A stretch of DNA of 42,985 nucleotides from positions 1 to 42,985 of IMG/VR virus record IMGVR_UViG_2671180458_000016. One strand, 5' to 3'. Of this stretch, positions 18,001-21,000 are shown one piece after another (position 1 is the stretch's first letter; each line of letters opens with the position of its first letter). A program made the position numbers. The stretch comes from a virus. Lineage: Duplodnaviria > Heunggongvirae > Uroviricota > Caudoviricetes.

Positions 18001-21000
18001 TGCCAGCCTCCCCCAGTGGCTGGCTTTTTTTGTATCCGTTCAACAGGAATGTTACATACCTCACAATTAAGTCAGTTGAATGTTGTCTGCCCGGATGAGA
18101 ATTTGTTAGAAAAAAACTGCATGGTGAATCCCCCTGAGCGGAGGGGCGACTGGTGACGGTATAATCTCTGATTATCAAAACGAGAATGACGAGGGTTTAG
18201 TGGCACCGGGCTGAACTCACCGGGAGGCACCCGGCACCATGCAATGGCACATAGCGCCACTCTCCAGCCCCTCTCCGGAGGGGCTTTCTTATGGACAAAA
18301 AAGCCCGCGCTGGGAGACGCGGGCGGCAAGGAATAAACAATGAAACGTGAAGTAATATTTCAGCTGGCGAATAATACCCTATAGTAATCACTCTGCGCAA
18401 CCTTTTTCGAATTGCGGGCTGTAGTCTCCCTTCTGCCATTGTCCTGTAACTTCCGGACTTCAGCCCGCTCCTTATTTTACTCACAATATTATCCCGGCCG
18501 GGAGGATTCATGGCATTTAAACACTATGATGTTGTCAGGGCGGCGTCGCCGTCAGACCTTGCGAAACGAATAACTCAAAAACTGAAGGAAGGGTGGCAGC
18601 CTTATGGTAGTGCGCTGATTTCGACAGCTGGTTATGGTGCGGAGTTCATCCAGCCAGTTGTGAGTGAGGGGAGCATCTCATCACCAGAGGAGCCAGGCAA
18701 CCGTCCGACGACCTCAGCGCCTTCTGTTGCGCCAGAATATTACTATGTGATCGCGCTTGCTGGTCAGTCCAATGGTATGTCATACGGTGAGGGACTGCCA
18801 TTGCCGGATACATTCGACAGCCCTGATCCACGTATTAAACAGTTAGCGCGTCGCAGTACGGTGACACCGGGCGGTGCAGTATGCAAATATAACGACATCA
18901 TTCCGGCGGACCATTGTCTGCATGATGTGCAGGACATGAGCCGCCTTAACCATCCGAAAGCGGACCTGTCAAAGGGGCAGTACGGTACCGTGGGGCAGGG
19001 GCTGCATATCGCCAAAAAACTGCTGCCGTTTATACCGGCGAATGCGGGCATTCTGCTGGTTCCGTGCTGTCGTGGTGGTTCAGCGTTCACCACCGGAGCT
19101 GATGGCACATACAGTGACGCGAGTGGTGCTTCGGAGAATTCAACCCGCTGGGGTGTGGACAAGCCGCTGTATAAGGACCTTATCGGTCGAACAAAAGCAG
19201 CACTGAAGAAGAACCCGAAAAATGTGCTGTTTGCCGTGGTGTGGATGCAGGGGGAATTTGATTTTGGCGGTACGCCGGTAAATCATGCCGCACAGTTTGG
19301 TGCGCTGGTTGATAAATTCCGTGCAGACTTGGCGGATATGGCAGGCCAGTGCGTCGGTGGCTCTGCTGGCGGTGTTCCCTGGATATGCGGGGACACGACG
19401 TATTTCTGGAAGCAGAAGAACGAATCCACGTACCAGACGGTGTATGGCAGCTATAAAAACAAAACGGAAAAGAATATCCATTTCGTACCGTTCATGACGG
19501 ATGAGAACGGGGTGAATGTGCCGACGAACAAACCGGAAGAAGACCCGGACATTCCGGGTATCGGATATTACGGTTCGAAATGGCGTGACAGCTCAGCCAC
19601 CTGGACGTCACAGGACAGGGCGAGCCATTTCAGTTCATGGGCTCGCCGCGGGATTATTTCCGACCGTCTGGCAACGGCGATTTTGCGCCATGCGGGAAGA
19701 GTGGCGCTAAACGCGGGGGCATCATCGACAGTATCAGAGGTGCGCCCGTCATCGCCTTCCGGTGCAGAAGCCACAGGCGTCACAACACTGCTCTCTTACC
19801 TTGCCAGCGAGTCAGAGGGAAGCCTGAAAGTACAGGGATGGTCAGCCAGTGGCGGCAGGGCAGAAGTGGTCAGCGATGCGGAGGGAACCGGAGGTAAGGC
19901 AGTGAAGCTGACCAAGGAGGCCGGTAAAAGCAGCTGGGTGCTGGAGTACGCCGCGGGCAACGGTGCGGCTCTGTTACAGAAAGGGGGGCAGATTCGCTGC
20001 CGCTTTAAGGTTTCGGGAGCGCTGGCTGCGAACCAGTATGTTATGGCGTTTTACTGGCCGGTCTCTTCACTGCCACAGGGCGTTGCCCTGACCGGAGACG
20101 GGGGGAATAACCTGCTGGCAGCGTTCTACATCCAGACAGATGCAAAAGACCTGAATGTGATGTACCACAATGCGAAAGTGGCGACAAACAACCTGAAACT
20201 GGGAACCTTTGGCGCATTTGATAACGAATGGCATACGCTGGCTTTCCGCTTTGCCGGGAATAACAGCCTTCAGGTGACGCCGGTTATTGATGGTCAGGAT
20301 GGCACACCGTTCACGCTGACGCAGTCACCGGTCAGTGCATTTGCGGCGGATAAACTGCATGTGACAGACATTACCAGGAATGCGACTTACCCGGTACTGA
20401 TAGACAACATTGCGGTGGAAGTGAACAGCACAGACACTGCGGCATGATAAAAAAAACCGCCAGCGACAGGAATGGACGCTGGCGGTGGTGATACCTATGG
20501 AGAAAAAATAAAGGAACGATACTTTCGTACTCTGGTTTTTAATGAAAACAGTTCTTATTGTCAACAATAACGGAAAGAAATTATGACATTTCTGAACCAG
20601 TTAATGCTGTACTTCTGTACGGTGGTCTGTGTGCTGTATCTCCTTTCGGGTGGGTACAGGGCAGTGCGCGATTGCTGGCGCAGGCAGATTGACAAAAGGG
20701 CCGCTGAGAAAATCAGCGCCGGTCAGTCAGCCGGAAGCAAACCCGAAGAGCCGCTCATTTAGCGGCAACTTTCTTAATCACACCTTTCGACGAGAAAATC
20801 CCATGTCAGAAATTACATCCCTGGTCACTGCAGAGGCAGTGAAGGAAGTCCTGCGCTCTGAAGAAGTCCGGAGCGCACTGAAACAGAAACTTCGCCATAA
20901 CCTGGAAGCGCGTCTTGATGCAGAAGTGGATGCCATTCTGGATGAACTGCTGGGCGCACCGGCAGCTCCGGAGCCGGAAGGCATCGCGGGTGAGGGGAGT

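Follow-up and report, generated by a model that had tools for sequence, protein, structure and literature searches.

Results

The stretch of DNA analysed here, called the window throughout, comprises the 42,985 nucleotides of IMG/VR virus record IMGVR_UViG_2671180458_000016, and the gene under study is nanS-p, an intact coding sequence for a NanS-p-like O-acetyl esterase of 645 amino acids (aa) that begins with ATG and occupies 18510..20447 (+) in the open reading frame (ORF) list. A GGAGG Shine-Dalgarno sequence lies at 18501-18505, 5 nt before the start codon. The original prediction described a 645-aa ORF at this position with a DUF1737 N terminus and a GQSN-containing SASA/SGNH domain, and the ORF list, Pfam and the alignment with the E. 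coli NanS structure agree with it exactly.

The protein is composed of three domains. DUF1737 forms the N terminus (aa 3-53; 18516..18668, +; Pfam PF08410, E 4e-18) and is followed by the SASA/SGNH esterase domain (aa 72-393; 18723..19688, +), the limits of which were taken from the alignment with E. coli NanS/YjhS (PDB 3PT5; E 2e-117, 56.5% identity), the Pfam SASA model giving a partial match within it (aa 152-275, E 5e-10). The C-terminal part is a lectin-like jelly-roll domain (aa 423-640; 19776..20429, +), delimited by Pfam, with DUF6645 at aa 489-607 (E 1e-74), and by PDB 6YP6, a C-terminal domain deposited as 'NanS-p', with which the window protein shares 216 of 218 residues (E 1e-139). 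PHROG 143 aligns with the protein from end to end; no NCBIfam model names it, and PADLOC returned no match for it, so that a role in defence is not suggested.

The likeness to NanS-p for which a database comparison had been proposed turned out to be very close, since beyond the 56.5% identity to the catalytic domain of E. coli NanS, 643 of the 645 residues are identical to 933W L0105 (z1466) and, equally, to phi24B gp84 (vb_24B_21), proteins of the same length and the same three domains. Residues 1-623 are those of phi24B gp84 without change, and the sole differences from both proteins, G624N and S633N, lie in the C-terminal domain, outside the catalytic domain. N624 is also present in an Stx2a-phage allele, and S633N is the single difference from the NanS-p copy of the nearest genome.

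Four SGNH blocks have been given for 3PT5, namely GQSNA, RGGSAF, MQGEFD and R-x-SHFS (PMC10792757, a structural survey of SGNH hydrolases). In the window protein, block I reads GQSNG (aa 85-89, GQSN being aa 85-88) with Ser87 as the nucleophile, block II RGGSAF (188-193), block III MQGEFD (246-251) and block V RASHFS (370-375) with His373 as the base; as judged by this alignment, all four blocks of E. coli NanS are kept, with GQSN, RGGSAF, MQGEFD and R-x-SHFS identical. E. coli NanS is, however, a single-domain protein of the chromosomal nan regulon, whereas NanS-p is the product of a phage late gene and adds N- and C-terminal domains that appear to bind the capsid and carbohydrate, respectively. 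The N terminus of the window protein, read from the sequence, is without a hydrophobic signal-like stretch. A check of the sequence also found Tyr42, Gly54, SISSP at aa 55-59 and PSSPS at 413-417.

All defining features of NanS-p that can be tested on a sequence are thus present: the catalytic domain carries GQSN and SHFS, DUF1737 and the C-terminal extension flank SASA, and the gene is located in the late region of a lambdoid prophage, between Q/pR' and the holin gene. By these features the ORF is assigned to the NanS-p family as a member and not merely as a similar protein. Neither the identity of the ORF nor the absence of stx (see below) is attributable to chance.

Late control region upstream of nanS-p

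The antiterminator gene Q is located at 13505..13930 (+) and was identified by Pfam (Phage_antitermQ, E 1e-44), tblastn and the RefSeq annotation of a near-identical genome; its product is 60.6% identical in amino acids to Q of 933W/phi24B. A late promoter pR' of the 933W type (TTTACA, a 16-nt spacer and TATCAT; 17745..17772, +) was recognized by a promoter scan and by homology to the annotated 933W pR', and a qut site can be inferred at about 17786-17793. Just past pR' lies a tR'-like intrinsic terminator (17803..17828, +), found by a terminator scan and invariant in the alignment with the annotated 933W terminator. It is followed by a second intrinsic terminator (GCCAGCC...GGCTGG and a T run; 18003..18030, +), evident from the sequence, the alignment and the annotation of 933W, where the tRNA genes lie downstream of it. 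Directly after the stop codon of the specificity gene described below come the final ~27 bp of a 933W-type Q and then pR' (17730-17772).

Directly upstream of nanS-p is an element of the STnc100/PasD small RNA (sRNA) family (18090..18296, +; Rfam RF02076, 166.9 bits, gathering score 47), which has a terminator-like hairpin of its own at 18266-18285. The element holds the same position in 933W (downstream of stxB), phi296, OkiPb01714 and phiSTEC1589, and the genomic context of STnc100/Pas-type sRNAs has been described (preprint 10.64898/2026.05.13.724894). AsxR, the anti-sRNA adjoining STnc100 in 933W, and AgvB were not detected beside the window STnc100, even at E 0.1. Just past the nanS-p stop codon, at 20449-20525 (-), there is a weak Esr41-like match (29.5 bits, far under the gathering score of 102) that also has a good terminator hairpin and T run; it is a candidate Pas-type sRNA, such sRNAs having been reported from the interval that separates the esterase and holin genes.

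Absence of stx and the junction in its place

The predicted absence of the Shiga toxin genes (stx) was upheld: when the whole window was searched in six frames by tblastn, at E up to 10, the Stx2A and Stx2B queries gave only noise, with a best E of 2.9. Stx1 is ~55% identical to Stx2, and the Stx2 queries should therefore have detected Stx1 too. No tRNA genes were found in the window by ARAGORN or Rfam. The arrangement that makes a Stx-converting phage, stxA and stxB between pR'/tR' and nanS-p, does not occur here.

Comparison with the 933W locus by blastn delimits what is missing. Window positions 17730-18030 correspond to 933W locus positions 1652-1958 (88%), which hold the last 27 bp of Q, pR', qut and the two terminators, and similarity resumes at window position 18061, matching 933W from 3749 onward (94.6%), 46 bp past the stxB stop codon. 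The intervening 933W block (1959-3748; 1,790 bp) consists of the pT promoter, ileZ-argN-argO, a terminator, stxA2 and stxB2. In its place the window has a junction of ~30 bp (18031..18060, from the breakpoints of the two blastn alignments), so few base pairs joining the late promoter and terminators to the STnc100 sRNA and nanS-p. The second terminator is the last element ahead of the junction to be conserved base for base, and past the junction the first ~60 bp on the right have diverged from every stx-positive and every tRNA-only sequence compared. A simple deletion derivative of 933W, OkiPb01714 or phi296 was considered for the junction and rejected, as it is no clean join of any of them.

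This slot was found in three states: with tRNAs and stx in 933W and OkiPb01714; with tRNAs only in phi296, the O111:H8 strain 7-32 and E2855; and with neither in the window, JNEC-KY174 and CFIAFB20190167. The stx-less junction haplotype, with or without tRNAs, was present in 110 complete E. coli genomes.

Prophage backbone, insertion site and nearest genome

The window starts in rcsB, and the integrase gene follows 44 bp on. Within window positions 1-700, similarity to E. coli K-12 breaks off 3 bp upstream of the ATG of rcsB, which places the prophage in the 16-bp rcsD-rcsB spacer and means that the native ribosome-binding region of rcsB is replaced by phage DNA. The prophage thereby parts rcsB from rcsD.

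The early genes run from integrase through excisionase, a LexA-family repressor, a DEAD-box helicase and a toprim primase to Q. Between Q and the sRNA come hok/sok, a 707-aa restriction-modification (RM) fusion gene and its specificity subunit, pR'/qut/tR', the second terminator and STnc100. After nanS-p, Pfam and the JNEC-KY174 annotation identify DUF1378 (20583-20762, +), DUF826 (20803-21048, +), holin S (21126-21341, +), lysozyme R (21346-21879, +) and Rz (22211-22678, +), and terminase, portal, capsid and tail genes follow. Products of the genes in 20583..22678 are 86-98% identical in amino acids to their phi24B counterparts, Rz being the one at 86%. The major capsid protein, of the N4-gp56 family (28799..30013, +; annotation), is identical to phi24B vb_24B_29 at 404 of 404 residues, and the other head and packaging proteins beside it reach 95-99.6% identity to those of 933W/phi24B. 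Against phi24B the values are 95% for TerS, 98.8% for the large terminase, 97.2% for the portal, 99% for the scaffold-region protein and 97% for the tail proteins vb39 and vb40; the late module as a whole stands at 95-100%, except for the tail spike (59%) and Rz (86%). At the DNA level, window positions 21000-42985 are 96-97% identical to both Stx1 and Stx2 phages over 67-76% of their length. Taken together, these comparisons assign the prophage to the lambdoid 933W/phi24B type (Sepvirinae).

The tail-spike/fibre protein (32163-33959, +) contains collagen-like repeats and is 59% identical to that of phi24B, its neighbours being 97-100% identical, and the GC content rises to 64% within its gene. 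From its sequence we regard it as a host-range module swap.

Compared over its whole length with a prophage of E. coli JNEC-KY174, the window shows 10 mismatches, a single 1-nt gap and one difference in repeat number. JNEC-KY174 is a clinical Shiga toxin-producing strain of E. coli (STEC) of serotype O128ab:H2, sequenced in a study of STEC negative for the enterocyte effacement locus (LEE) (PMC13534694). If the host of the window was like JNEC-KY174, stx would be expected elsewhere in its chromosome.

Among known phages, 933W and phi24B likewise carry nanS-p after STnc100 and before DUF1378, DUF826 and S-R-Rz, and share the capsid protein partner; they differ from the window in having stxAB and tRNAs upstream, in the two C-terminal residues and, for 933W, in AsxR. 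The stx-negative Sepvirinae (vB_EcoP_phi296, phi315 and phi367, PPwrbA_EC3734 and PhiR12_3) have Q, pR'/tR', STnc100, nanS-p and the lysis genes in common with the window and also lack stx, but the window has hok/sok and the RM and specificity genes between Q and pR'. In phi296 the nanS-p region is 98% identical in DNA to the window; unlike the window, it contains a 473-bp methyltransferase remnant and three tRNAs. The OkiPb01714 Stx2 and 2013C-3033 Stx1c prophages share the DEAD helicase, toprim primase, Q, hok, heptamer-repeat RM gene, specificity gene and 933W-type pR', but have tRNAs and stx between the second terminator and STnc100/nanS-p where the window has ~30 bp; in OkiPb01714, an iraM-like gene is in that slot as well.

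Accessory genes and a heptamer repeat in the RM gene

The prediction that the backbone carries alternative cargo was right for the prophage at large and wrong for the stx locus, where the ~30-bp junction is all there is. The cargo found elsewhere consists of two genes for YadA-anchor trimeric autotransporter adhesins (35389-36510 and 41504-42700, both +), which lie in low-GC islands of the tail region and are the real accessory cargo of the prophage, and of a second hok (Hok/Gef family; 41012-41152, +), flanked by the tail-tip fibre gene and the second of the adhesin genes. The study in which JNEC-KY174 was sequenced concerns EibG-like adhesins in LEE-negative STEC (PMC13534694).

The first hok/sok locus (Hok/Gef-family toxin; Rfam sok/hok-leader, 103 bits) lies right after Q at 13961-14285 (+), and next to it is the RM fusion gene (14460-16583, +), which RefSeq calls 'HsdM family' and PADLOC matches nearly end to end as a Type IIG restriction endonuclease-methyltransferase (E 3e-232). 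For the partner gene, PADLOC gives a match to a Type II specificity subunit, and the pair spans 14460-17737 (+). These matches suggest that the HsdM- and HsdS-annotated pair is a BcgI-like two-gene RM system and not an orphan type I methylase. We considered the RM and specificity genes as the 'alternative cargo' replacing stx and rejected the idea, because the module is upstream of pR' and co-occurs with stx2 (OkiPb01714) and stx1c (2013C-3033); since the same module with hok/sok precedes stx in these siblings, it is independent and replaces nothing.

Two codons past the only possible start codon of the RM gene (ATG 14460), we observed a perfect (GACCAGC)x9 array (14469-14531). With n = 9, the 707-aa frame of the window is open; in five related genomes n is 82, 50, 31, 83 and 23 (the last with a 4-nt variant), all out of frame. 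Of 5,426 complete E. coli genomes, 29 contain the module, and span differences imply roughly 16 to 120 heptamer copies across these 29, the number being unlike in almost every genome, including isolates that appear related by their strain names. Of the 16 arrays with a length that is a clean multiple of 7, three have n mod 3 equal to 0, six have 1 and seven have 2. The array looks like a case of slipped-strand phase variation, and a non-exhaustive literature search found no description of the heptamer repeat or of phase-variable RM in E. coli prophages. Across longer arrays, the RefSeq annotation of the opposite strand includes spurious ORFs, labelled 'YXWGXW repeat' or hypothetical. In OkiPb01714 (L007, 6219-6289) an array of (GCGGACTC)x8.9 stands inside the specificity-subunit gene, which is annotated in two pieces; the specificity gene of the window has no (GCGGACTC) array.

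Discussion

The results are best explained, with a probability that we put at about 0.9, by the ORF being nanS-p, a conserved late gene of a complete-looking, stx-negative prophage of the 933W/phi24B type, whose product would be a virion-associated esterase present independently of stx. Gene identity, domains, catalytic motifs, context and the absence of stx were established here; esterase activity and capsid binding are taken from the literature on proteins 99.7% identical. The NanS-p alleles of EDL933 and O104:H4 are active esterases on the 5-N-acetyl-9-O-acetyl form of neuraminic acid (Neu5,9Ac2), de-O-acetylate mucin glycans and permit growth on Neu5,9Ac2, and z1466 is among the genes most strongly induced by norfloxacin, together with stx2 (review PMC8065619). 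Two residues away from the 933W allele, the window allele is predicted to be an active Neu5,9Ac2 esterase as well. In phi24B, gp84 is among the strongest protein bands of the virion, a DUF1737 hexamer plugs the central hexon of each T=9 capsid face with Tyr42 as the anchor, and the density of gp84 stops at Gly54, beside SISSP, a second SSP being located in the linker before the C-terminal domain (preprint 10.64898/2026.04.10.717836, cryo-electron microscopy and proteomics). The window has the corresponding Tyr42, Gly54 and SISSP/SSP motifs as well as the cognate capsid protein at 404/404 identity, and the protein encoded at 28799-30013 is presumed to be the docking partner of DUF1737. As residues 1-623 and the capsid protein are the same as in phi24B, the conclusions of the preprint should transfer to the window, as far as the preprint itself holds.

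On this basis, a course of events may be proposed: (i) nanS-p expression would be Q dependent and would start, as inferred, from pR' at 17745-17772, with Q-modified RNA polymerase passing, after induction, tR' (17803), the second terminator (18003) and the STnc100 hairpin, so that read-through transcription would reach nanS-p, the lysis cassette and the genes for head and tail; (ii) the N-terminal DUF1737 would, as in phi24B, form a hexamer on the central hexon of each T=9 capsid face, and the SISSP and SSP linker motifs would be sites at which the protein is processed, as phi24B gp84 is; (iii) the SGNH/SASA esterase, with its putative Ser87-His373 dyad, would strip O-acetyl groups from Neu5,9Ac2 and mucin O-glycans, the lectin-like C-terminal domain probably serving in carbohydrate binding; (iv) the enzyme would exit the cell at lysis, on or beside virions, making O-acetylated sialic acids usable for surviving E. 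coli and possibly helping the phage in mucus. The tRNA-stx block would then be an optional insertion, located between the second terminator and the sRNA and absent from the window phage, and nanS-p would be present without stx because it belongs to the late virion-associated set, stx being optional and upstream.

Several points weigh against this interpretation. The capsid-decoration role comes from one preprint that is not peer-reviewed; the window allele carries G624N and S633N in the C-terminal domain, and the function of this very allele is a predicted one; and the window ends within the prophage, so that the phage is complete-looking only. The resident Q, moreover, shares just 60.6% identity with Q933W, and 3.8 kb separate it from the 933W-type pR' downstream; with a second promoter-like site right after Q (13927-13954), either site may be the working late promoter, and a start at either would carry antiterminated transcription into nanS-p.

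One challenge to a virion role is that nanS-p might be purely metabolic cargo of lysogenic conversion, kept without stx because lysogens gain from O-acetylated sialic acids. Deletion and complementation in EDL933 and O104:H4, where growth on Neu5,9Ac2 depends on nanS-p alleles (PMC8065619), speak for this explanation, and the presence of nanS-p-like DNA at as many as 15 places in one genome is consistent with selection acting on the host. We nevertheless consider it rather unlikely in this exclusive form, given that gp84 is found in phi24B virions with its N-terminal domain resolved on the capsid, that DUF1737 is mostly a single-domain phage protein (preprint 10.64898/2026.04.10.717836), and that the gene sits within the late operon and encodes no signal peptide, its product being released at lysis only. 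The full-length frame, the two substitutions in 645 residues relative to biochemically active alleles, the intact catalytic blocks and the strong Shine-Dalgarno sequence, along with intact integrase, repressor, Q, lysis, terminase, portal and capsid genes nearby, effectively refute an inactive remnant in a decaying cryptic prophage, even though many E. coli copies of nanS-p are truncated or interrupted by insertion sequences (IS1203v in Stx2 II and PA phages; split 'DUF6645' annotations); such a remnant is highly improbable. Even less credit, in effect none, can be given to the ORF being the chromosomal nanS (yjhS) of the sialic acid regulon: the 56.5% identity of the catalytic domain is what such a gene would offer, but the window protein has DUF1737 and DUF6645 in addition, lacks a signal peptide region, and is encoded between Q and holin in a prophage between rcsD and rcsB, not beside nanCM, and this three-domain architecture and prophage context refute a single-domain nanS of the nan regulon.

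A different question is how nanS-p came to stand without stx. The prophage could once have been a Stx phage, from which a single recent deletion between terminators removed the tRNAs and stx, leaving nanS-p behind. This is a tentative explanation, for which the sibling OkiPb01714, with tRNAs and stx2 behind the same helicase, primase, Q, hok, RM and specificity early region, the terminator T-runs at both edges of the missing block and the STEC nature of the closest host can be cited; against it, the first ~60 bp on the right side of the junction depart from the post-stxB sequence of 933W/OkiPb01714 and give no simple join of either or of phi296, the stx-less haplotype is shared by the 110 complete genomes, and the three slot states give no direction of change. 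Conversely, the second terminator, STnc100 and nanS-p with nothing between them might represent the ancestral late leader of the Sepvirinae, into which tRNAs and then stxAB were inserted stepwise later, nanS-p being a core virion/late gene and not an stx-linked accessory. We offer this speculatively, as a conjecture with which the three slot states and the diverged junction are compatible and of which they are no proof. A junction so diverged, and no clean join, would fit loss of stx as well as its never having been there.

Whichever applies, nanS-p without stx is a common and indeed the usual state, and one already described. Among the 5,426 complete E. coli genomes we counted 8,136 places with nanS-p-like DNA, spread over 2,252 genomes with a maximum of 15 in one genome, and 1,103 places with stx (stx2 at 743, stx1 at 360), the former count taking in partial matches, so that the comparison is a rough one. 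Occurrence of nanS-p in many non-Stx prophages is documented (PMC10462455, PMC8065619), EDL933 having seven alleles and the Stx-phage-cured O104:H4 C227-11 phi-cu having five (PMC8065619); stx-less phages with the same nanS-p region, such as phi296 and PhiR12_3, are known as isolated phages, which speaks for the viability of this arrangement; and of the chromosomal genes for PasA sRNA, found beside the esterase-holin-lysozyme unit, <3% adjoin stx (preprint 10.64898/2026.05.13.724894). The word 'retained' in the original prediction suggests an oddity, which does not survive these counts. Its placing of the prophage on a Stx-phage backbone is sound by the late proteins (capsid 404/404, portal 97%, large terminase 99%), but not by nanS-p, which is found in many non-Stx prophages and is thus, alone, no mark of a Stx-phage lineage.

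To conclude, the finding itself amounts to the correct annotation of a well-studied gene in a well-documented setting and is of little significance. The most interesting side observation is the hypervariable heptamer at the start of the RM gene, which, if it marks a true phase-variable RM system in E. coli, would deserve a study of its own and would matter more than the nanS-p finding. For STEC, the prophage adds one more active-looking esterase copy to the several already there. With respect to the NanS-p family, the gene is unsuitable as a marker of a Stx phage or of stx loss, and its presence in stx-less 933W-type prophages fits a role in virion decoration and not as metabolic cargo alone.

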